From: an uncultured Eubacteriales bacterium | Lineage (GTDB): Bacteria > Acidobacteriota > Aminicenantia > Aminicenantales > Aminicenantaceae | Direction: 5' to 3' | Assembly: GCA_964410125.1 (NCBI GenBank) | Contig: CAYPGQ010000006.1 | Coordinates: 29,194 to 93,193, forward strand | Length of the DNA: 64,000 nt | Shown: positions 28,019 through 43,437 of the stretch, one piece after another | Layout of the letters: every line of letters begins with the position of its first letter | Numbering within the stretch: position 1 is the stretch's first letter | Position numbers and translations under genes: made by a program | The notes under the pieces: generated by a model | Told to the model about the DNA's origin: nothing | The model's input: the letters and a program-made list of their open reading frames with translations, nothing else | Database searches by the model: none

Positions 28019-28317
28019 GGTTCCTCCTCACCCTCTTCACAAGCGATATGCTCGCGCAATTCTTTCACCGTATCAGAAAAGTTTACCATACAGCCTAGAA
28101 ACGATCCACTCTCCTCAGCTAGGTTATTCGTGATACTGGTGTGCCAATACGATCGAGCCCGTTCCCAAATCAGGTGATTTTCCCGGCTTAACTCGGTTAT
28201 AAGGTCCTTCATTTCCTCTAGCTGACCTAATATGTTGTCTCGAAGCTCCTCAAGCCTATTAACCGCTAAAACCTTGTCTTCCTTATCTAAAATAATCATG
28301 TTAATTCTCCTTTTCAA
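28000..28317 (-). CDS. hypothetical protein (island)
   Basis: The 105-aa ORF is co-oriented with the integrase gene and overlaps its start. No motif was recognised. Confidence 0.45.
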   Translation of the reverse strand: MKRRINMIILDKEDKVLAVNRLEELRDNILGQLEEMKDLITELSRENHLIWERARSYWHTSITNNLAEESGSFLGCMVNFSDTVKELREHIACEEGEEEPCQDKK

Positions 28318-28591
28318 ATAACGTGGAAATAATTGAATCGACGTCTTCAGGGATTACCGCATACAGGCTTTTGACGCCATGGACGATTCGCTGAACCAGC
28401 AGGTAATCGTTAGGAGCATGCGCCATTTGGGTAGGCCACATTTTCCTTACGGCATCCCCAAAGCCCAGCACCTTTCCAATCATTAGGGTATTTGCGCCTG
28501 TCCACTCATTCATTGCCCAGAAACGAATCTGGTCACCTTTCCTTGGCTTTTGTTTTTTCTTTTCCTCCATTGTGTTCACCATTTTGTTCAC
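28301..28591 (-). CDS. hypothetical protein (island)
   Basis: The 96-aa ORF is co-oriented and overlaps the downstream ORF by 17 nt. Confidence 0.45.
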   Translation of the reverse strand: MNKMVNTMEEKKKQKPRKGDQIRFWAMNEWTGANTLMIGKVLGFGDAVRKMWPTQMAHAPNDYLLVQRIVHGVKSLYAVIPEDVDSIISTLFEKEN

Positions 28592-28773
28592 CTTTTTATT
28601 TTATAATAAGTTTCATTATGTGAAAAATCAAGGAGCTTTCAAAAATAATTTAAAATCGGAAGGAATTAGCCCCGAAATACGCTGTATTTGGCGTTCTACG
28701 TTTATTTACGAAAAGAAGGAGTATTTATCCATAGGATAAGGTTGAGGGAATGTAAAGTGTGCGTATAGCGTGG

Positions 28774-29988
28774 CTATTTTCCGAGAGCGTCAGAAAGAAA
28801 AGAACCTTTGATATGGCTATCTATTTCAGAATCCTCGCAAGTGAATCTTATCCGGTTCCAATAAGTCCCGATTGCTTCTTCTAAGAAATGCCTTACTATC
28901 TTCTGGCCATCCTGGTTACAGATAAGCTTCTTCCTCACCTTGAGCCGAGCAGCATCATCCTTTGAATCTACAGATTCCTGTATCTTTTTTATCGTTGCTC
29001 CTAGCTTCTCATAAATTTCCAAGAGCTGAGGGAAGTATAGAAAAACCCCTTTTCTCCAGGTGATATGGAAACTGTTTAATACAGCTTCGTTTCCTTTTTC
29101 TTTGACAGCGTGCTTGAGTAAGATATTAGCCGTATACAAATCCCTAACCGCGTTCGACATGAAATCAATAACATCGCCATCCAACTGTTTGTAAAGGTTC
29201 TTGAATTCAGAATCTGTGCATTTATAATCTTTCGTAACATCTCCCTTTTCATCGATGCGATGAATTTCTTGATACTTCCAGTTGCCGTAACCACCACGCT
29301 TATCCAAAACCTCCATCTTCCCTTCCTTCTTTAAGATGCGATCCCTTTCCTGTTGCCTCTTCTTCTCTTCCTTCTTACTTTCCTCATTTTCCTGGTCTCT
29401 TTCTCGAAAGCATTTTTCATAAAATGCCTTAACAGCCGCACGAGAGATAGATGTATTTCCTGCCTTGAGTTTCTTTAGAGTTTTCTCAGGGGCATACTCA
29501 TTAATAAGCTTCACTCTGTAAATTGTGTCTGTGGAGAGACCTGCAATAGTAGCAACTTCTTTTAAAGTGTTAATAGGTTTTTCAGATTTCTTAGAAACCT
29601 TTTTTGGATGCCCTTTACCGTATTTTTTCCCTGACTCTCGTTTCTTCTGCTCGGCCCTTTTCTTTATGTAAGGTTCGAGTCTTAAAGCTAAAGTGGCCCG
29701 ATCGTAATTAGTGAGATTCCTTCTAGCGAATTGATTATAGATAATCCAGAGCCTTGCCGCTTCCCGGTTTTTAAGTTCTTTGGTCTTATCTATTACTGGG
29801 TATTTGATGTTGTGCTTTTGGCAAATATTAAACCTGTTATTTCCATCCAGGATACGCCCTTTCCATACGGTGATGGCATCCTTGCATCCTTCATTGAGGA
29901 TGCTTTGTTCCAAATCCTTATACTCTACCTTGGTGAGGGATCGCATAAGAGATTGAAACTCTTTGTCGATTTTGAATTCTTCACTCAT
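28774..29988 (-). CDS. ParB N-terminal (ParB/Srx) domain protein with an HTH and a long unknown C-terminal region
   Basis: The N-terminus has the ParB-like ILDGNNRFNICQKHNI (DGxxR) motif, a mid-protein HTH (LKEVATIAGLSTDTIYRVKLI), a K/E-rich linker and an unassigned C-terminal half of about 190 aa. Confidence 0.7.
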   Translation of the reverse strand: MSEEFKIDKEFQSLMRSLTKVEYKDLEQSILNEGCKDAITVWKGRILDGNNRFNICQKHNIKYPVIDKTKELKNREAARLWIIYNQFARRNLTNYDRATLALRLEPYIKKRAEQKKRESGKKYGKGHPKKVSKKSEKPINTLKEVATIAGLSTDTIYRVKLINEYAPEKTLKKLKAGNTSISRAAVKAFYEKCFRERDQENEESKKEEKKRQQERDRILKKEGKMEVLDKRGGYGNWKYQEIHRIDEKGDVTKDYKCTDSEFKNLYKQLDGDVIDFMSNAVRDLYTANILLKHAVKEKGNEAVLNSFHITWRKGVFLYFPQLLEIYEKLGATIKKIQESVDSKDDAARLKVRKKLICNQDGQKIVRHFLEEAIGTYWNRIRFTCEDSEIDSHIKGSFLSDALGK

Positions 29989-30216
29989 GGTTATACCCCT
30001 TTTCTGTTTATCAGAAAAAAAATAATATATGAAGGTGTGGTGGAATTCAATCCTCTTTAGGGATGATTTAGAGGGTGATTTTGAAAGAGCGTACGTTCAT
30101 CCGTATAAATAGGTTGAGCCAGTATCGTTTGCCGTTTTATGCTACGCTCTATACCAGCTAAGTATGGCATGTGCTAGTATAAGAAGTGGTTGTGAGGTGT
30201 GTGATAGGCTTTTGAA

Positions 30217-30444
30217 CTATATTTTTCTCTCTATCCAGAGACAATGATTACAAGAGTTAAATCCATTCTTTTTGGCTTCGTCTAGGTCAGTGAACATTCT
30301 TATAAAATCGGGGTTGATATTATCAATTCCACAATTAGGTTTTTCTTGTAATAGGTCGTGAACAAGATTAGTGCTCGTGTCGGCACAATATTGCCTTCCA
30401 TAAAAAGGTTTTCCTGGTCGGATTCTACGTACCATTTTCATCAC
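30217..30444 (-). CDS. hypothetical small protein
   Basis: The 75-aa ORF ends with C-x-H-C (SCNHCLW). No family was recognised. Confidence 0.4.
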   Translation of the reverse strand: MMKMVRRIRPGKPFYGRQYCADTSTNLVHDLLQEKPNCGIDNINPDFIRMFTDLDEAKKNGFNSCNHCLWIERKI

Positions 30445-30473
30445 CTCCCGTCTTTTGCCGAAAAAAAAGTTTT

Positions 30474-30926
30474 TTAACGCCCCATTGAATAAGCAGTAGG
30501 TCTCTCAAATAATATATTCGCACCCGCAAAAACAAGAAGAAAGAAAATTCCTAAGAAAAAGAAAACACCACACCACTTTATTTGATTTTTTAATTTCGTT
30601 TTGAGGGATTCAATCTCTTTACCTGTTGGTCTTCCCTCGATTGGAAAATTCCACCCCCACATTTTTTCCATAGAAGTGATGTAACTTTTCATCACTAGCA
30701 ACGAAAAAAACAACGAGACTGAAAAGCATACTAACGACACCAAAATAACTTCTTTCCAAACTGGATTCTCAAAGGCACGTTCCATAAAAGCCACCACAAG
30801 GATAAACGCACCTGTGTTGAGAGTTGTCATATTTTTGAAGTAGTCGTATTGATGTTTAAGAGACTCAAGTTGGACTTTGATAAATTCTATTGTGCGTTTT
30901 TCTTCAGTTGATAATTCTGTGCTCAT
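30474..30926 (-). CDS. hypothetical membrane protein (about 3 TM)
   Basis: Hydrophobic segments include GAFILVVAFM, VILVSLVCFSVSLFFSLLVM and CGVFFFLGIFFLLVFAGANIL. Confidence 0.55.
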   Translation of the reverse strand: MSTELSTEEKRTIEFIKVQLESLKHQYDYFKNMTTLNTGAFILVVAFMERAFENPVWKEVILVSLVCFSVSLFFSLLVMKSYITSMEKMWGWNFPIEGRPTGKEIESLKTKLKNQIKWCGVFFFLGIFFLLVFAGANILFERPTAYSMGR

Positions 30927-31153
30927 CGAGTCCTTCCTTCCTGTGGTTTAGGCAGTTCGGTGACCTTCACAGCTATCGGTAGAGTTCCCTCAAAAGCATC
31001 GAAATTGACATCAAGTATTTTCACACTCATACCCACACTCTGTTGTTCTGATGCCAGTAAGCTGCTACTGCCGACTGCAAAATCCTTCACACAAAGCCAT
31101 ATCAAACACAATGCGATAATGGTTAAAATGATTTTGGTGTACCTGTCGTTCAT
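30923..31153 (-). CDS. hypothetical small membrane-anchored protein
   Basis: It has an N-terminal TM segment (IILTIIALCLIWLCV) and a 4-nt overlap with the downstream gene. Confidence 0.45.
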   Translation of the reverse strand: MNDRYTKIILTIIALCLIWLCVKDFAVGSSSLLASEQQSVGMSVKILDVNFDAFEGTLPIAVKVTELPKPQEGRTR

Positions 31154-31209
31154 ACTGACCTCCTTTTTTTATTTTTATTAGATTCCCTTGAATATTTTTA
31201 TCTAAAATA

Positions 31210-31509
31210 TTAGTCACGACCAACAACTTTTGCTATACCAAACAAAATCATGATAACAATCCACAAACCATAAACAACTGTAATCGGAAACCAATTGCCC
31301 CAAACTGCTAGAGCATAAATTGGAGCTACTGCAAGAACCACAGGAAAGATTATCAAACTAAGAAATGCTGCCACTGGCCCTAACACTTCGTTGACGATTC
31401 GGATGGATATTACTAAGGTAAACAATCCCCCAACCATCATGATTATCATGGCTAATCCATAGATTGCATTTTCAAAAAGACCTCTAATCTTATCTATAAG
31501 TTTTCCCAT
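31210..31509 (-). CDS. hypothetical membrane protein (3 TM)
   Basis: I chose the start at ATG 31509 because an AGGAGG lies 5 nt upstream. Three hydrophobic helices are present. Confidence 0.55.
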   Translation of the reverse strand: MGKLIDKIRGLFENAIYGLAMIIMMVGGLFTLVISIRIVNEVLGPVAAFLSLIIFPVVLAVAPIYALAVWGNWFPITVVYGLWIVIMILFGIAKVVGRD

Positions 31510-31577
31510 GAAGACCTCCTTTCGCTTTGCTGGCAATATTTTAGTAATTGAGGATGAGGGTTGTCAACCTGTGTGGA

Positions 31578-32111
31578 TTACATAAACTGCGGGAATATCT
31601 TTTCATTCATAGTTCTATCCAATCGCTGGTCTTGTAGTTGCTCAAAGTAAACCTGAGCGCTTGCGATATTTTTATGCCTGAGCCAGTTTTGGATGAAGAT
31701 TGCGCTGGAGCCTTCTTTTGCCATTGCCATGGCGCATGAATGGCGTAACGAGTGAATACTATAAGCGTTCGGGATTCCGGCATTCTTGGCGTGCGTCTTA
31801 AACCGGTATTGCATCGCAGTCGTGGTTACTGGAAATAACCGTTTCTTAATTTTGTTCACCTTTACGTATTTTGCAATTTGCTGATAGAGAGCATCGTCTA
31901 AATCGTAGCTCCTCGTTCTACCATTCTTAACGCCGGTTATAATTATTTGCCTACTTTCGAAATTGATGTGCTTTACTGAAATGTTGCAAAGCTCCTGCAC
32001 CCTCAGCGCATATCGGAAACACAGTTTAAACGCTATAATATCTCGCTTGTTTTTACTGCGGACGATGGCTTTGTCTAAATCCTTGATTTGTTGTTGTGTG
32101 AGGTATTTCAT
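31578..32111 (-). CDS. short tyrosine recombinase (catalytic domain only, 177 aa)
   Basis: The catalytic residues appear as ALRVQEL (R), GVKNGRTRS (K), HSLRHS (H-x-x-R) and LRHKNIASAQVY (H...Y). There is no N-terminal core-binding domain. Confidence 0.8.
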   Translation of the reverse strand: MKYLTQQQIKDLDKAIVRSKNKRDIIAFKLCFRYALRVQELCNISVKHINFESRQIIITGVKNGRTRSYDLDDALYQQIAKYVKVNKIKKRLFPVTTTAMQYRFKTHAKNAGIPNAYSIHSLRHSCAMAMAKEGSSAIFIQNWLRHKNIASAQVYFEQLQDQRLDRTMNEKIFPQFM

Positions 32112-32882
32112 TTTAGAGTCTCCTTTAAATTGATTTGTTTATGGCTAGTCGTATACCGATATCTGTGTGTAGGGCGTTGTTCGGTATTGTGTACATATTT
32201 GTATGATCTCGCGCTATTTTGCTCCTGAGCTATATATTTGCATCGGTGTGTTGTGGAAAAGGTTTTTGTTCGAACGTGCCGCATCTTCTTCCCCGAAAAC
32301 AACTTAGCCATGATTTATATTATGATACTTCTACAGAAACGCCAAGGAAAATCTTTTCAGGATTCTATTATTCTATGAACGGATTCTAATCCGCTATATC
32401 ATAGCCGACCTGAAATAGTGCTTCATATTACCCCTCAATTCCAGCCCCATCTGCCAGATATAACACCGGCTTTTCGTTAGTGAAAGAGCCTCCTCCTGGC
32501 TCTGCTTGATATAACCCTCCATGTATTAGGGTGGAGCCCCATACAATCTACCCTTATACAGTCGTAGAGGGAGCCAGACTAATACCTCTTCCCAGATATA
32601 GAACTGTTATTGATTGTCCCAGATATGGGCAAATTGATTCGGTGTGCTTACTCTTCTTTACAGACTCAACCGATTCTTTACGATAGTAGACCGATTATGA
32701 AGGTTACGCCACCCCATATAACGTCGAGCTTTCTCTTTTTTCTTTTCTCTCATTCTATCTCTCATCATAGCCACTGAAGAGCTACTCTTTTACTGGCTAT
32801 TTACAAGATTCCAAATGGATCCTACTTATTCTATATTGAATATTAAATGAATATAAATCTTATACATAATATGACTACCCCT

Positions 32883-33446
32883 TTAATAGGGAGCCCTCTC
32901 CTCTATATCCCCTTTCCAGGTTCTTGGTCCAATTCTCTTTCCTTCCTCAATTCTCTTTTCCCTTATCCTTCTTACCCTCACCTGAAACCTCTTATCGGTC
33001 GTTCTTTCTTTAATGAATTTCTCTAAACTCTTTGCCTCAAATCGAACGCCAAAACCGACTTTCAAATAAGGCAGCTCTCCCTTATATATCCACTTATAAA
33101 AAAAGCTGTCACTTAAATCATATCTCCGCATTGCCACTGGGATATTAATCAGGGATTCTATCACCGGACCTTTCTCCAGCTCTATCTCCCTATACACTGC
33201 GATCATGCATTCCTCTTTAAGCCATTTATTTACTTCTCCGATTCTCCACATCCATTGCTTATACTGGGGACTTGAAAACTCATCCGGTTTTGGCAGGTAT
33301 TTATCTCGATGCCATCTATTCAAAGTCTCTCTTGTGATCCTAAAATATAGACTCAGTTCTCGCATGCTGAGAAGGTGTCCGCTTAACAGAGCTACTCTAA
33401 TCATCTTCCTCTTCTTTATCTCTGTGAAAATAATCAGGGGGCGCAA
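32883..33446 (-). CDS. DNA-binding protein with two excisionase/MerR-like HTH_17 segments (candidate excisionase/RDF)
   Basis: The two segments are MRELSLYFRITRETLNRWHRDKYLPKP and MRRYDLSDSFFYKWIYKGELPYLKVGFGVRF. The start is uncertain; internal ATGs lie at 33404 and 33365. Confidence 0.6.
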   Translation of the reverse strand: MRPLIIFTEIKKRKMIRVALLSGHLLSMRELSLYFRITRETLNRWHRDKYLPKPDEFSSPQYKQWMWRIGEVNKWLKEECMIAVYREIELEKGPVIESLINIPVAMRRYDLSDSFFYKWIYKGELPYLKVGFGVRFEAKSLEKFIKERTTDKRFQVRVRRIREKRIEEGKRIGPRTWKGDIEERAPY

Positions 33447-33594
33447 TTTGCGGATATGGCTTGTTTTGCCAGATCGTGCCGCCTTTTACTATTCTGTTTA
33501 GTTCGGTAAGCCTATCTTCAACACAAAGGATGCAGTCGCCGAGCAAATAGTGTCGATGCTCTAGGTCTTCGTTCTTATCAAATAAAGCCACCAA
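33397..33594 (-). CDS. hypothetical small protein
   Basis: The 65-aa ORF is co-oriented. It overlaps the longest version of the downstream ORF. Confidence 0.3.
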   Translation of the reverse strand: MVALFDKNEDLEHRHYLLGDCILCVEDRLTELNRIVKGGTIWQNKPYPQIAPPDYFHRDKEEEDD

Positions 33595-33776
33595 TTCTGC
33601 CTTTATTTTTCTAACACTTTTATTACTTCTTTCATTCTTAAAACTCCTTCATTTTCTCTCTTCATAGTTTTGGATGAGGGGGCTACGCTTGCAGCCCCCT
33701 CGATTGCTTGGAAACTTAGCACGTAACGCCTCTTGGTAAAACGTTACATTATCTGTAACAAAGACCCATTATCTTA

Positions 33777-33968
33777 TTATGTTTCTGTTACTTCGCCAAC
33801 GATTTGTGCGTTGTAGACGCCCTGTTGAGCCGGAACGACATCCCCGACAGCTCTTTTTATCTTAGCGCGAAAAATCGTCACATTCGCTTCCGAATCAACG
33901 ATGGTTTCCTCGTCCAGTTTGGTGTATTTCACAGTTAACGAATACGTCTTTGTAAAATCTGTAGCCAT
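33777..33968 (-). CDS. hypothetical small protein
   Basis: The 63-aa ORF is co-oriented. No motif was recognised. Confidence 0.4.
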   Translation of the reverse strand: MATDFTKTYSLTVKYTKLDEETIVDSEANVTIFRAKIKRAVGDVVPAQQGVYNAQIVGEVTET

Positions 33969-34026
33969 TTTATTCTCCTCTAATCTCGTTTATGAGCCCC
34001 GTACTCGCAACGCTCATAACTATAAA

Positions 34027-34272
34027 TTAATCTTGGTTATGCGCTTCGGCAACACGAAGAGTTCTGCCACCCACCTCTTTGCCATTTAATCCTGCGATGG
34101 CAGCGTTGGCTTCGGCATCATTTGGCATACTGCAAAACCCGTAACCTCTCGGTTTCCCAGTTTCTCGCCAAGTGCAAACTATAAGGCTTGCGACTTCCCC
34201 GTATTCCTGGAAAAGTGCCTTTAATTCCGCGTCGGTTGTTTCATAGTTTAGATTTCCTATATAGATTTTCAT
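34027..34272 (-). CDS. RRM-type RNA-binding protein
   Basis: RNP-2 (IYIGNL) and RNP-1 (RGYGFCSM) motifs are present, and the protein ends GRTLRVAEA, as in single-RRM bacterial Rbp proteins. Confidence 0.8.
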   Translation of the reverse strand: MKIYIGNLNYETTDAELKALFQEYGEVASLIVCTWRETGKPRGYGFCSMPNDAEANAAIAGLNGKEVGGRTLRVAEAHNQD

Positions 34273-34514
34273 TTTCTTGTTTTTCTCCTAGTTCGTTTTT
34301 CTTTCACGCTTATCGTCCTGGCGCTTGCCATACCCTTTGAAACGTTCAGAACAAGCGATTCTTTTACTTGTTTTTCTAATTCCTGAAAATGCACATTGCT
34401 AGCTGTATTTTGATTGAATCTTATCTCGACCTCAAAAATTTTATTCATTTTACTCCTGTTATAATTATGCTCGATTTGGGTTTTTATTCTGAGACGCATA
34501 GCCGTCTTGGACAT
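34269..34514 (-). CDS. hypothetical small protein
   Basis: The 81-aa ORF has a 4-nt overlap with the RRM gene start. Confidence 0.4.
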   Translation of the reverse strand: MSKTAMRLRIKTQIEHNYNRSKMNKIFEVEIRFNQNTASNVHFQELEKQVKESLVLNVSKGMASARTISVKEKRTRRKTRK

Positions 34515-34809
34515 TCTCGATTAGCAAATTTTCCTCTGGATATCCCGGAAGAATAATTTGGCTTATTTTTGCCTTTGCTTTTCTTAGCATAAGGTCCACA
34601 TCCACAATTTCACTATGCCTTTCTGCTTTCGTAAGCTGAACTAGGGCATAGAGCTTTTGCGGGTGGGCAATTTCTACTCGGGAAACCCATAGTTTAGTAC
34701 CCCTCTCAGACACCATTTTTATTTTCTCAAGATGCTCCACTAAAGACGGCATCGTTTTTTGGATTCCCGTGCGGAGCCAAATTGTTAACCAGCTTTCCCA
34801 AGATGTCAT
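34465..34809 (-). CDS. hypothetical protein, paralog 1 of a tandem pair
   Basis: SWESWLTIWLRTGIQKTMPSLVEHLEKIKMVSERGTKLWVS aligns with the neighbouring ORF. Confidence 0.5.
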   Translation of the reverse strand: MTSWESWLTIWLRTGIQKTMPSLVEHLEKIKMVSERGTKLWVSRVEIAHPQKLYALVQLTKAERHSEIVDVDLMLRKAKAKISQIILPGYPEENLLIENVQDGYASQNKNPNRA

Positions 34810-34835
34810 TTTTTATTCTCCTTTGTTTATAGTTT

Positions 34836-35183
34836 TTATAAATGAATGTGTCCGTCATATATGCGTTTTACGATCGGTTTACCCTCGTGTCTCAACTCCC
34901 CAAACATCCCTCTTAATTTTCGATGGGTCCTTTCGATTAGACCACCGCCAAAACGGTCTTTATTATTTGCCAATTTCCATTTCACGTGAACTTGAATCCC
35001 AACTCCTGTTGCTTCCGAAATCCAACACTTTGTTCCGCTATTGGATTCAAATCGGATAGCGCGAATTTGGTCAAGCAAATCGGGCATACTTTTCTGGAGC
35101 CCCGTTGAAAGCTCAAGTGTATTCCACTCCTCCCAGGAATGATGGGTCCCGTATTGGTCAGCATTCTCTTTTGTCAGTAACAT
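34836..35183 (-). CDS. hypothetical protein, paralog 2 of a tandem pair
   Basis: SWEEWNTLELSTGLQKSMPDLLDQIRAIRFESNSGTKCWIS aligns with 34465-34809. Confidence 0.5.
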   Translation of the reverse strand: MLLTKENADQYGTHHSWEEWNTLELSTGLQKSMPDLLDQIRAIRFESNSGTKCWISEATGVGIQVHVKWKLANNKDRFGGGLIERTHRKLRGMFGELRHEGKPIVKRIYDGHIHL

Positions 35184-35205
35184 TTTTTATCTCCTTAATA
35201 ACTAT

Positions 35206-35898
35206 TTATTCAATAATTCTTTTTCCCCCAGCGATTCTACGCTCCTCAAAAGTGAGTCCATCCTTGACCGCTTCTATAGTTTTCTTTTCTTTTTCCAGTT
35301 TGTAATAGCCCGCAGCCCGTTGCTCCTGGAGCAGTAACACATTCACTTTCGGGTCCTGTTTTTTCTGATCATTATTTCCAGATTCTAAAGCTGAATTCAA
35401 CGACTCAAGCATCGCTGGACCGATATGCATTCCTGAACTTGGCGTATGTACGATATCAGCTGATTTCATATCATAGTTATCCTCGACTATGCCACCAGCA
35501 TTTACTTTTCCAATTCCAACTGTTGATGCACCGCACTTTACCCCTGATTTAATCAGCGTCAATAAATCAGCACCTTTTTGGGTATTTAGGATTCTTGCCT
35601 TAGCTTGAGCTAATCCATCTTTAAAGAAAAATTCCGTAAATACGTGGCTGACTTTATCTAACGCAATTATGCCATCCGGGTTATGCCGAAGCATGCCCGG
35701 CACCGGTCCGAGTTTTAATTTTATATTCATTTTACCCATCTCCCTTTTCAAAAGAGCAGTCGGGTAAGTTCTTTTGTTGTTATTTTCCACCCCGCCTTTA
35801 GCGAGCGGAACCGTTAAGTTTGCCAAAAATAGTTTTTTATCCTTCGCTTCACTTAATTCGATTTTTGATTCAAAAATATCAGTTATTTTAGTTGTCAT
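35206..35898 (-). CDS. putative phage prohead protease/scaffold-like protein
   Basis: The pattern N.N.R.YP..LL...(P.MLRH)...GLAQAKARIL.T.KGADLL.LIKSGV..GASTVGIG resembles HK97/XkdF-type prohead proteases in its His...Ser arrangement. The C-terminus is charged. The assignment is tentative. Confidence 0.4.
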   Translation of the reverse strand: MTTKITDIFESKIELSEAKDKKLFLANLTVPLAKGGVENNNKRTYPTALLKREMGKMNIKLKLGPVPGMLRHNPDGIIALDKVSHVFTEFFFKDGLAQAKARILNTQKGADLLTLIKSGVKCGASTVGIGKVNAGGIVEDNYDMKSADIVHTPSSGMHIGPAMLESLNSALESGNNDQKKQDPKVNVLLLQEQRAAGYYKLEKEKKTIEAVKDGLTFEERRIAGGKRIIE

Positions 35899-36047
35899 AG
35901 TTATCTCCTATTGTGAAAAGAGACGGGACCGGAAGGAGGTTGCCAAACGGCCCCGCCCATGAGATTGAAAATAGACAAGAGATGGGGAATGTTGGAAGGG
36001 ATTCCATCCCCACCAAATGGAAAAATTAAAGACCTTTAAAAACATTG

Positions 36048-36437
36048 TTATTTCTCTCCAAATTTTAAACCGCGTATAAACCCATGAAGAAACGCTTCAT
36101 TATCGGTCGTCCAATTTGCTTCCTCGTCAACGCTTGGAACTATAACCTCCGCGACTTCTAAAGCCAACGTTTGGAATTCCTCATCGGTGCAAGCGTCCAT
36201 CGCCTCCAGCGCTAGCCGTAACGTTTTTTCCTCCCGGATGGCGGTTTGGTGTAAACGCCATAATCCAAGCGCTTCTTTTAACAGCTCGCCCACGTCCGTA
36301 TTCTGTGGCAATTGCTCAAATGCCTTTTCTCGCTCTTCAAACTCTTCAAACGCCTTGCCGTAACGCTCGATAAGATCTTCGAGCACGATATGTAATTGGT
36401 CTTGATTCTTAATTAAACACTTTTCTTCATCTGCCAT
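36048..36437 (-). CDS. hypothetical acidic protein
   Basis: The 129-aa ORF is E/D-rich and helical. No motif was recognised. Confidence 0.45.
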   Translation of the reverse strand: MADEEKCLIKNQDQLHIVLEDLIERYGKAFEEFEEREKAFEQLPQNTDVGELLKEALGLWRLHQTAIREEKTLRLALEAMDACTDEEFQTLALEVAEVIVPSVDEEANWTTDNEAFLHGFIRGLKFGEK

Positions 36438-36481
36438 TGGTTATTCCCTGATATATATAAGCCAGGATTTTTCGAAATCCA

Positions 36482-37372
36482 TTATTTTTCGCGATTTTCA
36501 TGGAAAATATTTTTAATCTTTTTAATCAGCGTTTTTGTCTTTTCAGTGTTTCTCATAACTTCTAATTTATTCCGACTGGGCGCGGCATATCCTCTAATCC
36601 TTTGCGAATCAGGCACCACAATATAGTTTTTATAAAACATTCTCATTTCCCGTATCGCAATTTTGCTTTCTTCTTTGTCCATCTTGTATAGTTTAGCTGC
36701 CTCATTTTTCAGTGCTGTATTTGCCAGATCCTCCCTCGACTCAAACTCAAGCGAGATAAGATTTTGGAAATCTTTTACTGAAAAAATTATAGCTTTAAAG
36801 AAAAGCGTTGACGGGAAACTATAAGCTAGGAACCTAGCCATCAAAGGGTCGCTGGCAAATTTCTTTATCAAATAAGCTTTGAGGTATCGCGGATCAGCAG
36901 AATGCGCTAATGCCTTTTCCAAAGCATCCTGTGAAACTATATCCAAAATGCCATCCTGATTTTTTGTATTCTGACGCTGAATTGTCCCAGCCTTATTCGA
37001 ATCAGCTATTGCACCAAGACCATCCTCACCTTCTATAATTGGTAAATTTCCGATACTTGAAACTATATTTAACCTCGTTTTAAATGTCCTGAGAAGCCAG
37101 TATGCTTTGATATCAAATTTCTTGTATAGTTTTTCGTTCTCCAAAGTTTGTAATGCTACTCGATTTTTCTTTACCCATTTGCCCTGTGAGAATAGCTCGT
37201 CGAAAAGCATCTGCTCGGCATCCACATCCCTATATCGCAATACATACTCGACCTTTCGCCGAATATAGTTTTGGATTTCTTTTAGCTCTGTTTTGTTGAT
37301 CTTTATTTTGCGCTGGTTTAAGATAACTTTGCGGATTGCTGAGATAATCAGTCTAGAGTTGTAGGACGGCAT
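36482..37372 (-). CDS. hypothetical protein
   Basis: The 296-aa ORF is co-oriented. No motif was recognised. Confidence 0.5.
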   Translation of the reverse strand: MPSYNSRLIISAIRKVILNQRKIKINKTELKEIQNYIRRKVEYVLRYRDVDAEQMLFDELFSQGKWVKKNRVALQTLENEKLYKKFDIKAYWLLRTFKTRLNIVSSIGNLPIIEGEDGLGAIADSNKAGTIQRQNTKNQDGILDIVSQDALEKALAHSADPRYLKAYLIKKFASDPLMARFLAYSFPSTLFFKAIIFSVKDFQNLISLEFESREDLANTALKNEAAKLYKMDKEESKIAIREMRMFYKNYIVVPDSQRIRGYAAPSRNKLEVMRNTEKTKTLIKKIKNIFHENREK

Positions 37373-37698
37373 TGTTATTTCCTGGTTATTTACCTATTAG
37401 CGCGGTATAGGAAGCACTTTATCGGTTGCTCCATATATCCTTAACACTGAGACATTTATTTCCTTTTAAAATTGAAGATTAAACCGTTGCCAGTTTACTG
37501 GTAATGGTTTTACACCAGCCGGTTTCCGGATGGTGATAGAGTATCGGCTAATCTCTTATTTTGGATAGCTATCAAAAACACCGCTTCCTTCTCTTTAATT
37601 CTTATTAAAGAGTATTAATACTCTTCTTAATACTATATATATATTTACGTTTATTCTTATATGGTAAGGATATATCTTACTCATGACTAAGATATATC

Positions 37699-38124
37699 TT
37701 AATCACTGCCTTCCTTTTCCTTACGGAATTTCTCTTCCCACTCCCATTTTTCAACCGCAATATTGGCTTGCTCAACGTACCCATTCATATCTTTTTCAGA
37801 AATTACTTCATTCTTAAAGCCATGAAGGATAGTAAGATTTGTTTTCATTACTCCTCTTCGATATCTGGTAGCCCAACCCTTCTTTTCTAACTCGCGCCAG
37901 AGTGTGGAAACGTGCTGCTCGCTTTTATTCATAACCTTGCTAAGTTTTGCATTACTTGCCCACGTTATTCCTTCAAAATTTGCAATCCTTGCAGCTACGA
38001 CGTATAAAAAGCGGGCAGATACCCCAACATCCGTATCGTCGATTACCTCGTACGGAATTTGCGCGTTATTGGTTTTGAATCTGTTGACTAAAGCAAGCGG
38101 TTTATTAGAGCTGTATTTCTTCAC
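37699..38124 (-). CDS. winged-helix DNA-binding protein (replication-initiator/regulator-like)
   Basis: ARFLYVVAARIANFEGITWASNAKLSKVMNKSEQHVSTLWRELEKKGWATRY is a typical wHTH segment. It lies next to a palindrome-rich non-coding region. Confidence 0.55.
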   Translation of the reverse strand: MKKYSSNKPLALVNRFKTNNAQIPYEVIDDTDVGVSARFLYVVAARIANFEGITWASNAKLSKVMNKSEQHVSTLWRELEKKGWATRYRRGVMKTNLTILHGFKNEVISEKDMNGYVEQANIAVEKWEWEEKFRKEKEGSD

Positions 38125-38413
38125 GGACTAAACTCTCCTCTTCGATTAAAGTGGCTACGGCTTCCCTTCCCCGAGCAACCACTTCTGTTGTTCGCTCATT
38201 CTTTTTCCAGCGCGTCTTGAATCGAATGGCAACTATATCCCCATCCTCCAAACGAAAAGCATGATATCTTGCTTTCAATGCCTCATCCAGGTTATCGGGT
38301 GTACTTGCAATCGCAAAGCGTTGATTATTCTTACAATGGTCGTGAAGAAAATCAACAAGGCATAGAGTGTCCTGGAAGATGAAACTCTCCTTTTGGAAAT
38401 TAAATCTAACCAT
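38105..38413 (-). CDS. hypothetical protein
   Basis: The 102-aa ORF overlaps the wHTH gene start by 20 nt. Confidence 0.45.
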   Translation of the reverse strand: MVRFNFQKESFIFQDTLCLVDFLHDHCKNNQRFAIASTPDNLDEALKARYHAFRLEDGDIVAIRFKTRWKKNERTTEVVARGREAVATLIEEESLVREEIQL

Positions 38414-38761
38414 TTTTTTACTCCCTATTTATTTTATAATTTTTCCTCACTTGATTTTTTGATTATTGGTTGCCCCTTTCTATGTTATTGAATCGGTTAT
38501 ATTTGTATTATATGAAATTTTGCTTGGATCATCAAGGATTATTTTTAGCCGGTGGCTACTGGAAAGGGTAATTCCCTCAACCTATTTATATTCCACACCG
38601 ATCGTTCTTTGCGTATACGCGCGTAAAACCGGTGTATTTTACTGATAATATGGTAGGGATTGACAAATGTTAGGTTATTAAACAATTCCAATGACATGAT
38701 GAGATTTTTCAGATTTCAAAAAAACCTAACAAGTGAGGTTTTTAAGAACTGAATTCAGTAA

Positions 38762-40033
38762 TCAGTAAATAGGGGATGTATTTATTTGAAAATGTTTATT
38801 TCTAACTGTATCAATTCGCTTTTCTAAGATATCTTTTCCAATTTCTTTTATGCTCTCTTCGAAGATATGTTTAACTGCATTCGATAATGAATACCCCTTC
38901 CTCTGTAATATATATATAGCAGCAAAATTATCTAAAGAAAATCTTTGGAATAAATCTAATTTACCGTAAGCTTCAATATTTTCAATCTCATAAAATGGCA
39001 TATCTTGATAATCTAATAAGATATCTCTGGAAAACATTAAAAGCGATAATAAATTTTCCTTGGATGCTTTTTCATCGACAATTGGATTCTTATTATATTC
39101 TACATCTTCAACTCCAGCTGTTATTGCTCCAAGCCTACGGACAATACATCCATAACAAGTTCCATCATGTTTTCCAAAGCGCTGAGTAATACAAGAATAA
39201 GTCTTTTTAAATTCCCCCTTAAATTTTGAAAGAGCCATTACTTCAGCTTTAGTCATATTTTCGAAGGGAGTAATAATTTTAATCTTCTTCTTAAGTAATA
39301 ACTCAAGAACTTTATGCGAGATTTCGACAGTCACTGGATGGGTTGTCATCGTGACTTCATCATACGGCCCAAATCTTGGTTGATACATAGTGGGTCCACA
39401 TTCAGAAACAATAAGAGTATCAGAATTCAGCAAGCTCATCCATGCTCCAGCTGATATCATATATAGAAAGCCTCTTAATTGAGAATATCCTCCTTTAGTT
39501 AAAGATGGTACATAAATTGTCTTCAGCTTAATTCCAGTTAGAGATAAAAAATCCTTTAATAAAGAATTTACTATATGTATATTCCACGCTTGGTCTGAGT
39601 GAGCACAAAATATCCCCACAACATTATTGAAATATTCTTTAGCCCAAGTTATTCCACTAAAAGAATCTATGCCCCCAGAAAAAAGAACAGATATATACGG
39701 ACTCTCTGGTTTTTTATAATCGAACTTCTTTTTATTCAACTTCTTTTTTGATTGAATAAAATTAATATCTACATCTTTTAAAAGAATATAAGATATCAAC
39801 TCAGAAAGAATATTTTTTAATTCACTCTTGTGATTTTTTGTAAACCGCTCTATATGAAATTGACTAATTCTATCTCTTTTTGCTAATTTTTCTAATTCAA
39901 AAATACCATAAGCGATTGAGAGAATATCTCGAGATTTTATATATTCTTCATAGTTAAAAATTCGCATTTGAGGAGCTTGAGAAAGCCTAAGATGAAATTC
40001 ATGGATTTCATCAGAATCTGATTTTTTATTCAT
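38762..40033 (-). CDS. QueC-like PP-loop ATP pyrophosphatase with an unknown N-terminal domain of about 110 aa
   Basis: The PP-loop VLFSGGIDSFSGITWA matches QueC VVFSGGQDSTTCLFWA. RGFLYMISAGAW...LIVSEC, ITPFENMTKAEV and the C-terminal Cys cluster SCITQRFGKHDGTCYGCIVRRLG resemble the QueC zinc site. Confidence 0.8.
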   Translation of the reverse strand: MNKKSDSDEIHEFHLRLSQAPQMRIFNYEEYIKSRDILSIAYGIFELEKLAKRDRISQFHIERFTKNHKSELKNILSELISYILLKDVDINFIQSKKKLNKKKFDYKKPESPYISVLFSGGIDSFSGITWAKEYFNNVVGIFCAHSDQAWNIHIVNSLLKDFLSLTGIKLKTIYVPSLTKGGYSQLRGFLYMISAGAWMSLLNSDTLIVSECGPTMYQPRFGPYDEVTMTTHPVTVEISHKVLELLLKKKIKIITPFENMTKAEVMALSKFKGEFKKTYSCITQRFGKHDGTCYGCIVRRLGAITAGVEDVEYNKNPIVDEKASKENLLSLLMFSRDILLDYQDMPFYEIENIEAYGKLDLFQRFSLDNFAAIYILQRKGYSLSNAVKHIFEESIKEIGKDILEKRIDTVRNKHFQINTSPIY

Positions 40034-40302
40034 CGTCTGAAAGCTCTTAGTGCGGCACCTATAGAAGAATTAAAGGCTGTTCTGAGAAGAGTCTCATCTT
40101 CTAAATTTGAACCATGCTTTTGCATATAATATCGAGCAGCATGTTTTGCAATCCCATCAAAATTTCGTTTCAGAAGTGCGCTATCACCTTTCTGTAAGAG
40201 TGCAAAATAAGGTGAGTTTTCTTTGGATTTTATCATGGCATGACATTCTTCTCGAAATATTTCTTCTATTAAGAAAGAGCACTCCTCACAAGTAACACTC
40301 AT
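40030..40302 (-). CDS. hypothetical 90-aa protein (cassette gene 3)
   Basis: It has 4-nt ATGA overlaps with both neighbours and N-terminal cysteines (TCEEC...EEC). No family was recognised. Confidence 0.55.
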   Translation of the reverse strand: MSVTCEECSFLIEEIFREECHAMIKSKENSPYFALLQKGDSALLKRNFDGIAKHAARYYMQKHGSNLEDETLLRTAFNSSIGAALRAFRR

Positions 40303-40664
40303 TTTTTTATTCTCTTTAGAGCCCTACTCACTGCGTCTACAACTCCAATATCAATAACTCTATTGGATATTAGCCTTTCTTCCTCTTTTTTCTCGGCCCA
40401 ATCGACTCTTACTTTTCTGCTTATTTCTTTTATCACTCTGAGTTCCTGTGGAGGGTATTTATCTTTTATATCGGATAATAATTTCTTCGAAAAAAGATAT
40501 ATTTTAACTATATCTCGGTGTTCAGGTATTAATTTGACAGAACTTCGAGCAATGCCACCAATATCTCTTTCTTTCAAAGATTTTGTAAGCGCATCTCTTT
40601 TTTCTAGAGCTCTTTGACTTTCTCCCACAACTTCCCTAATTGAATATGCTCTGCGGCCACCCAT
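40299..40664 (-). CDS. hypothetical 121-aa basic protein starting Met-Gly-Gly (cassette gene 2)
   Basis: It has a TAATG overlap with the upstream gene and an ATGA overlap with the downstream gene. No family was recognised. Confidence 0.55.
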   Translation of the reverse strand: MGGRRAYSIREVVGESQRALEKRDALTKSLKERDIGGIARSSVKLIPEHRDIVKIYLFSKKLLSDIKDKYPPQELRVIKEISRKVRVDWAEKKEEERLISNRVIDIGVVDAVSRALKRIKK

Positions 40665-41203
40665 TATAATTTCTCCATTAAATTAATAAACTCATCTTTA
40701 TATTTTCTTTCAGCGCTATTAAGATGGGAATTAAAACATAACAGACATACAGAAAAAAGCACACAAATAAAAATAGGTATAAATTCTCCGGGAATTTTTA
40801 TAATTAGAATTTTTATTTTGCAATTATCTTCAATGAAATAATTAACTGTTCCTGATAAAAAAAATGAAATTGTTAATGCGAATATGAGTTTATATTTAAT
40901 CTTGTATAGAGATTCTATTTTACCTCTTTCCTTATCTAAACTAATAAATTTTCCTATTATATTCACATCCTGAACTTCTTGGAGAGTTTCCTCTTTTAAT
41001 AAGGCATTTAATGCTTTTAATTTCTTTATAGGAGAAGTTTGAGCTCTAAGCAGTGGTCTAATTTTTTCCCACTTAATATTGCGCTTCATACTAAAATCCC
41101 TTTCCGCCTCTACTGTGTCTTTATGCCAGCTTTTTATTTGCTCACTCCAACCTATCAACACCAATAAAAGAATTACCCCAGTGCCTATTAAAAATTCATC
41201 CAT
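40664..41203 (-). CDS. hypothetical 3-TM membrane protein (cassette gene 1; candidate effector)
   Basis: The TM segments are FLIGTGVILLLVLIGW, LIFALTISFFLSGTVNYF and FIPIFICVLFSVCLLCF, with a charged helical loop between TM1 and TM2. Confidence 0.6.
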   Translation of the reverse strand: MDEFLIGTGVILLLVLIGWSEQIKSWHKDTVEAERDFSMKRNIKWEKIRPLLRAQTSPIKKLKALNALLKEETLQEVQDVNIIGKFISLDKERGKIESLYKIKYKLIFALTISFFLSGTVNYFIEDNCKIKILIIKIPGEFIPIFICVLFSVCLLCFNSHLNSAERKYKDEFINLMEKL

Positions 41204-41407
41204 TCTTAATATAGAAACTCCGAATAAAAATATGTCAGATTACTATTTTTCATTTGTTTTCCCATCATCTTAAAGCTGTCATTTATAATAAAATAAAAAA
41301 TGTTTTTTTTCAAGAAAGATTCAAATTTAAACCTGCTACAATACCCATGGCTTTCTTGTATCGACTGGTCAAATAAGCTCAAGTAAGAATAAAATCTACA
41401 TGCCGAT

Positions 41408-41614
41408 TCATCCCGTATGGCATTCTCTGGAACAAAAAAAGCAACCATTCGACTGCTGGTAATGCTTTTTTGCTTCCTTTACGGCATCATGACAGGTATT
41501 AAAAGATCCAAGATAGAGCCTGTTTTCTTCAGAGGGGAGATAGTCGCAATCTTGCTTATGAACTTCATGGTCTCCATTCGTCTGAGCCTTTTTGTTGACA
41601 TAATAAGACGCCAT
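41408..41614 (-). CDS. small Cys/His-rich conserved hypothetical protein (68 aa)
   Basis: YYVNKKAQTNGDHEVHKQDCDYLPSEENRLYLGSF..CHDAVKEAKK.YQQSNGCFFCSRECH has four Cys plus His. I recall this pattern from widespread uncharacterised small proteins. Confidence 0.6.
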   Translation of the reverse strand: MASYYVNKKAQTNGDHEVHKQDCDYLPSEENRLYLGSFNTCHDAVKEAKKHYQQSNGCFFCSRECHTG

Positions 41615-41669
41615 AGCAAACCTCCTTTTTTTACTTATTCCACTATAAAATGTACTTCAGCAGCAACTC

Positions 41670-41738
41670 ATGTCAATAATTCTTGAAGAAATGTCACTTT
41701 ATTTCACATTATGTCACTTTATGTCATATGAAATGACA
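41670..41738. promoter_or_regulatory. operator-like ATGTCA repeats in a divergent promoter region
   Basis: ATGTCACTTTAT occurs twice (41691 and 41711). Further ATGTCA copies lie at 41670 and 41721, and TGTCAT/ATGACA form an inverted pair (41722-41738). Confidence 0.45.
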
Positions 41739-41935
41739 ACAAAACCGTCTGTTTATTCTATCTGATACCCTTAATCCTATTTACAACTGTCAAAACACAC
41801 TACAACACCCACGATTCTCCTCTCCCGTCTGGAGAGAGTTCCCATCTTTTGGTTCCCATCAATTACCCCTTAGATTCGATGGCAGCCGGTAACATATTCA
41901 TTTAGATTGTTGGCATAGCAATATAAAAATTAGTT

Positions 41936-41944
41936 TGATATAAT
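41936..41944 (+). promoter_or_regulatory. extended -10 promoter element (TGATATAAT)
   Basis: A TGnTATAAT match lies about 55 nt upstream of ATG 42000. Confidence 0.45.
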
Positions 41945-41999
41945 TTCATACAGAAATGAGGAGGGCGGTTGAGTTATTATCTTAATTTTGGAGGGTAAA

Positions 42000-42326
42000 A
42001 TGGGATGGGTACCAATTAAATGTTATCTTTGTGATAAAGATGCAGAACAATGGAATTATGATCCCCCTGATTTTATGGTGAGGTCTAAACTTTCTTCAGA
42101 TAAACCTTGTGAATGTGGATTTTATAAACTTATTAGCCATCTAATAAAATTTAGAATGGATGACAAGAAAAAATTGCTTACAAAAAACAAGACTCCTCTT
42201 ACAGAAGCACAAAAAAAGAGTCTCGCTGATTTTGTTAAAAAAAATCAAGATCCAACAGGCAAAAATCCAGTGACGATACATTTAGCCAAGTATGACAATC
42301 TTATCTTACGAAGTTTAGAGGATTAA
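42000..42326 (+). CDS. hypothetical Cys-containing protein (108 aa) upstream of the HEPN gene
   Basis: ATG 42000 follows a GGAGGG RBS. CYLC...CEC is a possible zinc-binding site, and the C-terminal half is K-rich. Confidence 0.55.
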   Translation: MGWVPIKCYLCDKDAEQWNYDPPDFMVRSKLSSDKPCECGFYKLISHLIKFRMDDKKKLLTKNKTPLTEAQKKSLADFVKKNQDPTGKNPVTIHLAKYDNLILRSLED

Positions 42327-42402
42327 ATGACCTTCTTCAGGAGTGGTCGCCTCACTAGATAGACGGATGAGGAGGAAGGGAATTCTCAGGAAAGGATAAA
42401 AA

Positions 42403-42930
42403 ATGAAAAGAAAAAAATTATTACTAAATGGAGAAACTTTTGATGAAGACTTGGCAAAAAAGTTTCATGATGAACTTAATGGAGAATCAATAAGGGCAGC
42501 TGTAATTTGTGGCTTTGCTTATATAGAGAGTCTGCTAAAAGAATTATTACAAAGAAAATTGGTTAAAGACAAAGAAACGTTTAAACGTATTGATATAATG
42601 GGACTCGAAAAAATATTAAGTCTGTGTTTTTGTTTAGGAATTATTAGCAAAGAAGAAAGGAGTGATTTAAAGATCTTAAGTAAGATAAGAAATGAATTTG
42701 CACATGATTGGGAAGTTAATAAATTTGAAAATATCACTATTGGAAACAAATTAGACAATCTATATATTGTTACTCATATAAAAATATGCAGAAACGAAAA
42801 ATCCTTTCCTATTTATAATTCAAAGGAGAAATATCTCTCAGCCATAAATGCATACTACTTAATATTCCATTGGAGACTTCTTCAGAATGGCAAAAGAATA
42901 AAAGCGCGCGAAAATTATTATGCTATATAA
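42403..42930 (+). CDS. HEPN-superfamily protein (MtlR/DUF4145-like)
   Basis: The R-x4-H motif occurs in LSKIRNEFAHDW. The helical N-terminal part ESIRAAVICGFAYIESLLKELL is typical of MtlR-like HEPN domains. Confidence 0.7.
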   Translation: MKRKKLLLNGETFDEDLAKKFHDELNGESIRAAVICGFAYIESLLKELLQRKLVKDKETFKRIDIMGLEKILSLCFCLGIISKEERSDLKILSKIRNEFAHDWEVNKFENITIGNKLDNLYIVTHIKICRNEKSFPIYNSKEKYLSAINAYYLIFHWRLLQNGKRIKARENYYAI

Positions 42931-43437
42931 GACACAATCGCGGATACACGGGCGAGAGAATAATCGCCATTTACCCAATATAGTCCCAAAAATGTCGAGA
43001 GACTGAAAATCTCTATCGACCATTACTCTAACAACTCTTTCAGCTCAGATAAATTCCTAATAATATTTGGATTGGTGTATCAAGTATTCTTTTTAGGAAT
43101 TCCTTTATCAACTGTTAAGCTAGAATTGTTTGAAGCTCTCTGAGCGTATTATGCACCCTAATCGATGAGTTAATAAAGTTCAAAAATTCGGGTACCCGAT
43201 AGAGTCGGGCGGCAAGGATGTTTTGAGCACGACTTTGTTTGAGAATAAAAGATCCGGACAAGCTCGGGAACAGAGGCTGGAGTGGAGGAGATTGGGAGTT
43301 AACGTGCGCAGTTCCGCAACCGCCGAGAAGGATGGTGAGTGAATGGCGTTAAAAATCGTCACTAAAGTGAAGGACATGTCTGATAGAGTATGGATACATA
43401 ATCAAAAAAGGTCCACGCAATATAAAAGAGAAGCTTT

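Follow-up and report, generated by a model that had tools for sequence, protein, structure and literature searches.

A 64,000-nucleotide stretch of DNA (here called the window; positions 29,194 to 93,193 of contig CAYPGQ010000006.1, GenBank assembly GCA_964410125.1, from an uncultured Eubacteriales bacterium that GTDB places in the Acidobacteriota) carries a compact cassette of four genes, A, B, C and D, in which a small basic protein that begins Met-Gly-Gly (gene B) is encoded together with a QueC-family enzyme whose fold and active-site residues mark it as QatC-like in particular (gene D). The best explanation of these genes is that they form one operon on a horizontally acquired island and encode a QatC-type protein-conjugation module. 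By analogy with Qat and with type IV CBASS (cyclic oligonucleotide-based anti-phage signalling system), gene B is probably the N-terminal-glycine substrate of gene D, with Gly2 as the acceptor that the QatC-like ligase would modify after removal of the initiator Met. A first-pass annotation of the window had proposed the protein as a candidate for this role, and the proposal is supported by the invariant Met-Gly, by the QatC-like enzyme and by the precedent in CBASS and Qat. Taken jointly with the substrate role of gene B, it is probable that the cassette represents an undescribed variant of a known anti-phage system; a literature search for the A-B-C-D four-gene architecture found no paper describing it.

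The Met-Gly N-terminus of gene B is conserved as protein sequence

Reading of the gene B open reading frame (ORF) on the minus strand (40664..40299) gave 121 amino acids (aa) starting MGGRRAYSIREV, confirming the Met-Gly-Gly start given in the first-pass annotation. Its ATG (40664-40662) is the first possible start past the preceding in-frame stop and overlaps the stop codon of gene A in the sequence TAATG, and its GGAG-N8-ATG arrangement is repeated in two other loci (L001 and L004). The B/C and C/D junctions are also stop/start overlaps (ATGA in both cases), and the description of gene B as lying two genes upstream of the QueC-like gene and translationally coupled to it is thus correct, with overlapping stop and start codons at every junction.

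A word-indexed search returned seven relatives of gene B with 52-100% identity, all with MGGR. Searching 1.84 billion cluster representatives with a gene B profile extended the family to 37 proteins of 118-125 aa and one of 210 aa, each aligned from its own residue 1. Among 38 family representatives with no more than 50% identity to one another (mean column identity 24%), the only invariant columns were M1, G2 and W89, and R4 and K93 were conserved in more than 90%; position 3 was Gly in 32 sequences, Ser in 5 and Glu in 1. The Met-Gly N-terminus, whose invariance among homologues had been marked for checking, was invariant down to about 20% identity. Residues 1-8 carried 3.29 bits per column versus 1.80 for the remainder.

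The codons for Gly2, Gly3 and Arg4 differed synonymously across loci (GGT, GGA or GGC for Gly; CGC, AGA, AGG, CGA or CGT for Arg), and because codons 2-5 vary in this way, selection acts on the protein and not on the DNA. On the same grounds we rejected the idea that the motif is kept as DNA, such as a translational-coupling signal. The conservation at codon level also shows that residues 1-12 are translated, and the ATG start, a second point raised for checking, is well supported.

Since the search profile contained the motif, loci were also sampled through gene D alone. This sample drew on 16 GTDB genome loci, three contigs from metagenomes and two additional divergent homologues of D, and was reduced to 13 distinct loci by removal of duplicates and of contig-end-cut and degraded loci. 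Of these 13, 12 carry MG[GS]R[RK] at the start of an uninterrupted gene of 118-121 aa, and their gene order is A-B-C-D. The thirteenth locus (L044, a long-read assembly) kept ATG GGC GGA AGA AGA GCT one base out of frame with the rest, and owing to this frame shift its gene B homologue was called from an upstream GTG (L044:2340-2708); the shift is either an assembly error (indel) or the mark of a pseudogene. Gene D in L024 was likewise broken into two ORFs. The four-gene order was identical in every locus whose upstream region is intact. Alignments showed that the N-termini of A, C and D are variable, gene B alone in the cassette having a conserved N-terminus.

Gene D is QatC-like in fold and active site

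Database matches placed gene D in the QueC family (Pfam QueC, 5.8e-11, and more weakly PADLOC models of the QueC/Cap9 type, 4.7e-10, and of QatC, 3.6e-7), and comparison of a 23-sequence family profile with the PDB ranked QatC (9vlk, 3.7e-7; 9zee, 4.7e-6) ahead of QueC (1.6e-4) and Cap9 (0.55), with the alignment to QatC taking in part of the region upstream of the PP-loop. An AlphaFold2 model of gene D (predicted local distance difference test score, pLDDT, 90.1) matched best to 9y02_B (E 6.8e-12) and 9y01_B (3.1e-11) in Foldseek searches. These two are QatC chains from QatB-QatC crystals, the core of QatABCD (also solved in 9vll and 9zee), and they aligned with gene D over the full length (template modelling, TM, score 0.61-0.63 over about 450 columns), whereas QueC and Cap9 aligned to the gene D core alone (TMq 0.34-0.35 in Foldseek).

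The active-site residues point the same way. In the PP-loop, FSGGIDS, residues S119, G120, G121, D123 and S124 were invariant in the 23 homologues, and S119/D123/S124 correspond to S156/D160/S161 of Pseudomonas aeruginosa QatC. The adenine-binding pair R233/F237 of that enzyme is matched by R187/Y191, and T278/T280, which replace the Tyr/Asp of the nucleobase site, by T228/T230; the gene D sequence TMTTHP aligns with QatC TRTTHP, and both of these Thr residues are invariant in the family. In P. aeruginosa QatC, the counterparts of all these residues are essential. Gene D shares with QatC the P(x)4TK motif, here PFENMTK (K262), and the CxxCxxRR zinc motif (C281...C293-YG-C296-IV-R299-R300), in which the spacing from the first Cys is 11 residues and not 19. 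R187, Y191, K262 and the zinc-motif residues were invariant, except R300 (conserved in at least 90%).

Comparison with the other QueC-family enzymes shows how far gene D departs from them. With canonical QueC, the preQ0 synthase (PF06508 cluster 1, 3bl5), gene D has in common the Rossmann-like PP-loop core, SGGxDS and the zinc cysteines, but it lacks YxQxHxxE, VPxRN and YPDC and has large N- and C-terminal extensions, and the host has a separate canonical queC beside queD. Cap9 is minimal (about 185 aa) with a canonical Tyr/Asp deazaguanine site, in contrast to the 423 aa and the Thr/Thr of gene D.

Gene B is an analogue of QatB

The AlphaFold2 model of gene B (pLDDT 90.6) is all-alpha with residues 1-8 as coil, and mean pLDDT was 67 for residues 1-10 versus 88-96 in most later blocks, so that the N-terminal tail is predicted to be free and flexible ahead of a folded helical domain. 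The protein has a pI of about 10, with a net charge of +6 to +17 in most homologues. Its consensus N-terminus, MGGRRSYS, shares G2-G3 with CdnD (MGGS), and [S/A]6-Y7 is common to many QatB proteins (MGTSKAY, MGTSSSY, MGTSGAY), which follow the pattern MGTS-x-[S/A]-Y.

Beyond the N-terminus, no relationship to a known substrate was found. Foldseek comparison of the gene B fold with the PDB gave a best E value of 2.0 and no hit below 1 in a library that included 9y01 and 9y02, and the family profile matched no PDB chain in a library that included QatB chains. As a control, true QatB genes were taken from canonical QatC loci; these encode proteins of 259-342 aa whose N-terminus is MGTS (MGSS in one case), the genes sitting immediately upstream of QatC and QatD, and their profile recovered the solved QatB chains 9vll_A and 9zee_A at 1e-45 to 1e-47. 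Gene B as a short QatB homologue was rejected, with no match in PADLOC, PDB-profile or Foldseek comparisons and an hhalign probability of 0.04%. Genes B and C as a split QatB were also unsupported, the 90-aa family of gene C giving an hhalign probability of 0.3% against QatB. Because it has no similarity to the QatB profile, gene B is an analogue of QatB and not a homologue, with the logic of the N-terminus in common.

Precedents in type IV CBASS and Qat

Attachment to an N-terminal glycine by a QueC-family enzyme is firmly established for type IV CBASS. Wassarman et al. found that Cap9 joins 7-carboxy-7-deazaguanine (CDG) to CdnD through the alpha-amine of Gly2 once the initiator Met is gone, and crystallography together with mass spectrometry identified the adduct on CdnD (MGGS) as 7-amido-7-deazaguanine (NDG) (10.1101/2025.04.06.647259). 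For Qat, three groups showed a QatB-QatC complex and loss of defence by G2D (PMC13279940, PMC13376578, PMC13639016). QatB has a conserved MGTS N-terminus, in which G2D abolishes defence (PMC13279940), and Edman sequencing found Gly at the QatB N-terminus (PMC13279940, PMC13376578). An Escherichia coli crystal structure shows the QatB N-terminal loop inserted into the QatC active site, with residues 2-10 entering the cleft (PMC13376578); the N-terminus lies in the active site in both E. coli structures, and the tail, unresolved in the P. aeruginosa crystals, was positioned by AlphaFold3. One group detected an NDG-modified QatB peptide, GTSKAY, by liquid chromatography-tandem mass spectrometry (LC-MS/MS), two groups argued from the Thr/Thr site that the substrate may not be CDG, and in vitro reconstitution of the reaction was achieved by no group. 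The first-pass annotation had invoked attachment of a 7-deazaguanine derivative to the N-terminal glycine of a partner in both systems; the statement holds firmly for CBASS and was somewhat too strong for Qat, where the modification is a proposal backed by one mass-spectrometry detection.

The cassette resembles both systems and departs from both. In the cassette as in QatABCD, the operon partner of the enzyme has a flexible N-terminal tail that starts Met-Gly and in many cases has [S/A]-Tyr as residues 6-7. QatA (KAP NTPase, PF07693) and QatD (TatD, PF01026) were absent from the cassette and its neighbours in the loci whose gene tables were read, the partner has 121 aa and starts MGGRR where QatB has about 260-290 aa and starts MGTS, the two being non-homologous in sequence and fold and the gene B tail much the shorter, and the cassette has in addition a 90-aa gene between partner and enzyme and a three-transmembrane protein leading the operon. 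Gene D may be likened to the ATP-dependent QueC-family ligase of type IV CBASS (9nto), which acts on Gly2 of its operon partner, and the N-termini of gene B and CdnD are identical at positions 1-3 (MGG-), but the cassette lacks a CD-NTase, the TGT-like Cap10, the OGG-like Cap11 and a nucleotide-activated effector.

QatC-like enzymes are also found in other settings. Libby et al. reported qatA or qatD beside only about 34% of QatC-cluster genes and left other contexts undescribed (PMC13329287). Among our loci, another clade consists of QatC-like enzymes of 622-699 aa (L042:585-3384, L043:569-3438, L046:152-2804, L047:504-3327, L049:1697-4466), each preceded by a protein of about 260 aa that starts MGH (MGHLRLGRLPRTQQW, MGHVRLGILPASKKW and similar), and in L039 a QatC of 472 aa is preceded by an MGSQS protein of 258 aa. 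Three of these other QatC-like loci lie on IMG/VR viral contigs.

The cassette, its island and its distribution

All four ORFs are on the minus strand in head-to-tail order (Table 1). A scan for promoters and terminators gave counts no higher than those in shuffled sequence (promoter-type sites in the region, 19 versus 16.1 +/- 4.1).

Table 1. Features of the four-gene cassette, with positions in the window
Feature	Position	Strand	Basis
Gene A, 179-aa membrane protein, candidate effector or membrane anchor	40664..41203	-	ORF, hydropathy, homologue alignment
Gene B, 121-aa basic protein (pI about 10), start MGGRRAYS, proposed N-terminal-glycine acceptor	40299..40664	-	ORF, family alignments, AlphaFold2
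Codons 1-9 of gene B (M-G-G-R-R-A-Y-S-I), most conserved segment of the family	40638..40664	-	Information content, synonymous codons
GGAG Shine-Dalgarno sequence of gene B, within the 3' end of gene A	40673..40676	-	8 nt upstream of the ATG
Gene C, 90-aa helical protein, N-terminus variable, between B and D in all loci	40030..40302	-	ORF, alignment
Gene D, 423-aa QatC-like PP-loop ATP pyrophosphatase, QueC family	38762..40033	-	Pfam, PADLOC, PDB profile, AlphaFold2/Foldseek
Promoter-like site TTGAAA-17-TATTAT, about 80 nt upstream of gene A	41285..41313	-	Consensus match alone, weak

Genes A, B and C have no Pfam, PADLOC or PDB family, these searches giving only sub-threshold and inconsistent hits, and gene C has no similarity to any PDB chain. 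Gene A, the first gene of the cassette in all loci, has three hydrophobic segments (about residues 4-22, 106-124 and 130-163), and an alignment of 13 homologues showed a conserved LLGWS(D/E)QI(R/K) after the first of these. In Acidobacteriota, gene A homologues (L013, L014, L015, L023, L024) carry an extra N-terminal extension of 70-120 aa made up of a signal-peptide-like hydrophobic stretch and a Pro/Ser-rich low-complexity region, which suggests, from sequence features, that the N-terminus of A lies outside the cell. We considered a 68-aa Cys-rich gene upstream (41408-41614) as a fifth component but rejected it, because the genes of equal length close to the cassette in L001 and L004 encode unrelated proteins.

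The cassette has a GC content of 0.31-0.35 versus 0.43-0.45 in the flanks and is the most AT-rich part of an inserted low-GC element of about 17 kb (window 26180-43400) between the ribosomal protein L9 gene and pth. This element carries a 612-aa large serine recombinase, a 177-aa tyrosine-integrase fragment and an HTH_17 excisionase-like protein, as well as an HTH_36 protein and a protein resembling prohead proteases (Peptidase_S77, 2.7e-6); we recognised neither capsid nor tail genes in it. Divergent beside the cassette (window 41988-42930, plus strand), a gene for a 112-aa protein with Cys residues precedes one for a 175-aa protein that matches Pfam MtlR (3.5e-6), and the two look like a separate HEPN-type toxin or defence pair.

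Homologous cassettes have different flanks, with genes for SIR2_2 and ParA-like proteins and an integrase gene together with a DUF3987 gene among them, indicating that the four genes move as a unit. On one metagenome contig, the gene immediately downstream of the cassette encodes a SIR2_2 protein of 584 aa (L001:3650-5404), which fits a defence-island context, and in L007 the integrase and DUF3987 genes adjoin the cassette. Hosts span Acidobacteriota, Eubacteriales and DPANN archaea, the last (L017, L018, L019, L012, L022) being Woesearchaeota, Nanoarchaeota, Aenigmatarchaeota and Pacearchaeota with genomes of 0.5-1.3 Mb; the presence of the same cassette in DPANN metagenome-assembled genomes (MAGs) shows that it has been transferred between bacteria and archaea. 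Sequenced plasmids and phages gave no match to the cassette at E <= 1e-10, and IMG/VR gave only distant QueC-family relatives of other clades (24-30% identity).

Proposed mechanism

The present analysis establishes the layout of the genes, the conserved N-terminus of B, the strict co-occurrence of all four genes, and the QatC-like fold and catalytic residues of D. We propose the following scheme by analogy with type IV CBASS and Qat, an analogy that covers Met removal, binding of B by D, ligation, the adduct, the role of A and the function in defence. Glycine at position 2 makes a protein a good substrate of methionine aminopeptidase, so the gene B product would be expected to shed its initiator Met, exposing Gly2 on the short flexible tail GGRR(A/S)YS. 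The QatC-like gene D would adenylate a carboxylate substrate through its PP-loop, and attack of the Gly2 alpha-amine on the adenylated intermediate would yield gene B with an N-terminal, amide-linked adduct. The leading candidate for this adduct is NDG derived from CDG, as in type IV CBASS, although another acyl group is possible. Modified gene B, perhaps with gene C as an adaptor, would then control the three-transmembrane protein A; the earlier suggestion of a module driving a membrane effector is drawn from the linkage of the genes. The likely setting is defence against phages or mobile elements, and the context of the cassette (low GC, an island with recombinase, integrase and excisionase genes, varied flanks with SIR2_2 and integrase) fits defence cargo.

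Several observations weigh against this scheme. The N-terminal QatC motifs described by Libby et al., D(x)4R(x)7WxR and DxW/YxxxF (PMC13329287), are missing from the gene D family consensus before the PP-loop, where there is no conserved Trp, although this region is still weakly alignable with residues 91-165 of QatC 9vlk. Gene D scored 27.4 bits on the PADLOC QatC model (PDLC02214) versus 95-618 bits for canonical QatC, and the host genome was not among the matches to the PADLOC QatC model at 1e-20. From the missing motifs, the low PADLOC score and the lack of a qatA or qatD neighbour, gene D is a distant sister clade of QatC and not canonical QatC. Its Thr/Thr pair stands where Cap9 and QueC use Tyr/Asp to read deazaguanine, and QueD was not found in four of the five DPANN host genomes, which are small and possibly incomplete MAGs. 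Gene B is without homology to CdnD as well as to QatB (PADLOC, PDB profile, Foldseek; hhalign against QatB, 0.04%), and its free tail of about 8-16 residues is short beside the QatB tails of 30-90 residues in the P. aeruginosa paper. Gene C separates B from D in the operon, and direct binding of the B and D products is therefore not assured. Finally, the weakest hits of the gene B search were partly selected for the motif that the search profile contained.

Nature of the adduct

The identity of the attached group is less secure than the acceptor role of Gly2. The host genome encodes canonical queC, queD and tgt, the sole TGT lying on a contig other than that of the cassette, so CDG should be available. 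The host queC is split over two contig ends (C68:21936-22292 and C74:5-331), with queD adjacent on C68; the split is an assembly break and not a gene loss. Given the Thr/Thr pair of gene D and the four DPANN hosts in which QueD was not found, deazaguanylation is a leading guess only, and NDG as the tag on gene B, assigned by analogy with CdnD, is best regarded as tentative, somewhat short of an even chance.

In the strongest alternative, which we consider rather unlikely, gene B is still the glycine acceptor of D, but D activates some other carboxylate, cellular or phage-derived, and the attached group is not a 7-deazaguanine. T228/T230 replace the pair that in Cap9 and QueC stacks on and hydrogen-bonds deazaguanine, and in QatC itself changing Thr to Tyr/Asp abolishes defence, CDG was never seen in crystals and in vitro reconstitution with CDG failed. 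The four DPANN genomes in which QueD was not found also gave no strong match to canonical QueC. Set against these points are the NDG-modified N-terminal QatB peptide seen by LC-MS/MS in one study and the QueD encoded by the host here and by four of the five other bacterial hosts; moreover, the DPANN genomes are small MAGs of uncertain completeness, and precursors may come from the hosts of these archaea.

Other explanations of the conserved N-terminus and of the cassette

It is also conceivable, though improbable, that MGGRR is conserved for a reason apart from D, as a basic arm for nucleic acid or membrane, as a contact with A or C or as a stability signal, with D modifying a small molecule, a nucleic acid or another protein. 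The strongly basic character of gene B and its Arg-rich motif would suit such an arm, as would its lack of homology to known substrates, and QatC has been reported to bind DNA (PMC13376578). A basic arm would, however, tolerate changes of Gly to Ala or Ser and of Arg to Lys, yet G2 was invariant in 38 of 38 sequences while position 5 was freely Arg or Lys and positions 6-8 varied. Both protein substrates known for QueC-family enzymes are marked by an invariant Gly next to the initiator Met. B and D are strictly found together, and other QatC-like clades also have partners that start with Met-Gly (MGTS, MGSQS, MGH).

Still less probable is a module with no role in immunity, one that serves a housekeeping membrane process or the mobile element itself (for example in addiction, exclusion or membrane remodelling). 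In its favour, PADLOC places none of A, B and C in a defence family, and the cassette has no relative in sequenced phages or plasmids at the threshold given above, with only distant QueC-family proteins in IMG/VR. QatC-type enzymes are so far known, however, from defence systems only (PMC13279940, PMC13329287), the neighbours include the MtlR/HEPN-like gene here, SIR2_2 in L001 and the integrase and DUF3987 genes in L007, and the distribution over bacterial phyla and DPANN archaea is patchy.

That the Met-Gly start is an annotation artefact is very improbable: an in-frame GTG (Val13) of gene B does have AGGGA 4 nt upstream, but no in-frame start precedes the ATG, the GGAG-N8-ATG arrangement and TAATG coupling favour the ATG, the protein sequence of residues 1-12 is kept across phyla while their codons change synonymously, and all 37 database relatives begin at the same residue.

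Implications for QatC-type protein conjugation

The three structural papers of 2026 agree on the open question for Qat, namely the reaction of QatC and the way in which the modified partner stops phage. In the cassette, an enzyme of this type goes with a substrate candidate that is well folded and far smaller (121 aa with a free tail of about 8 residues), and the output of the cassette is apparently a membrane protein, in contrast to the ATPase and nuclease of Qat; with these two properties it may offer a simpler system for trapping the adduct and for following the signal. A bolder and less likely possibility is that the cassette is a third independent architecture of N-terminal-glycine protein-conjugation immunity, in which a small unrelated basic protein, tagged with a non-deazaguanine acyl group, gates a three-transmembrane effector; the choice of a non-deazaguanine group here stems from the presence of the cassette in DPANN hosts where QueD was not found. 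If true, such a tag would reveal the chemistry of the whole QatC branch.

A Met-Gly partner seems to be a general rule for QatC-like enzymes, and the cassette extends the rule of a Met-Gly partner plus a QueC-family ligase to non-homologous partners and to DPANN archaea. In this form, the rule may serve as a guide in searches for further protein-conjugation systems.

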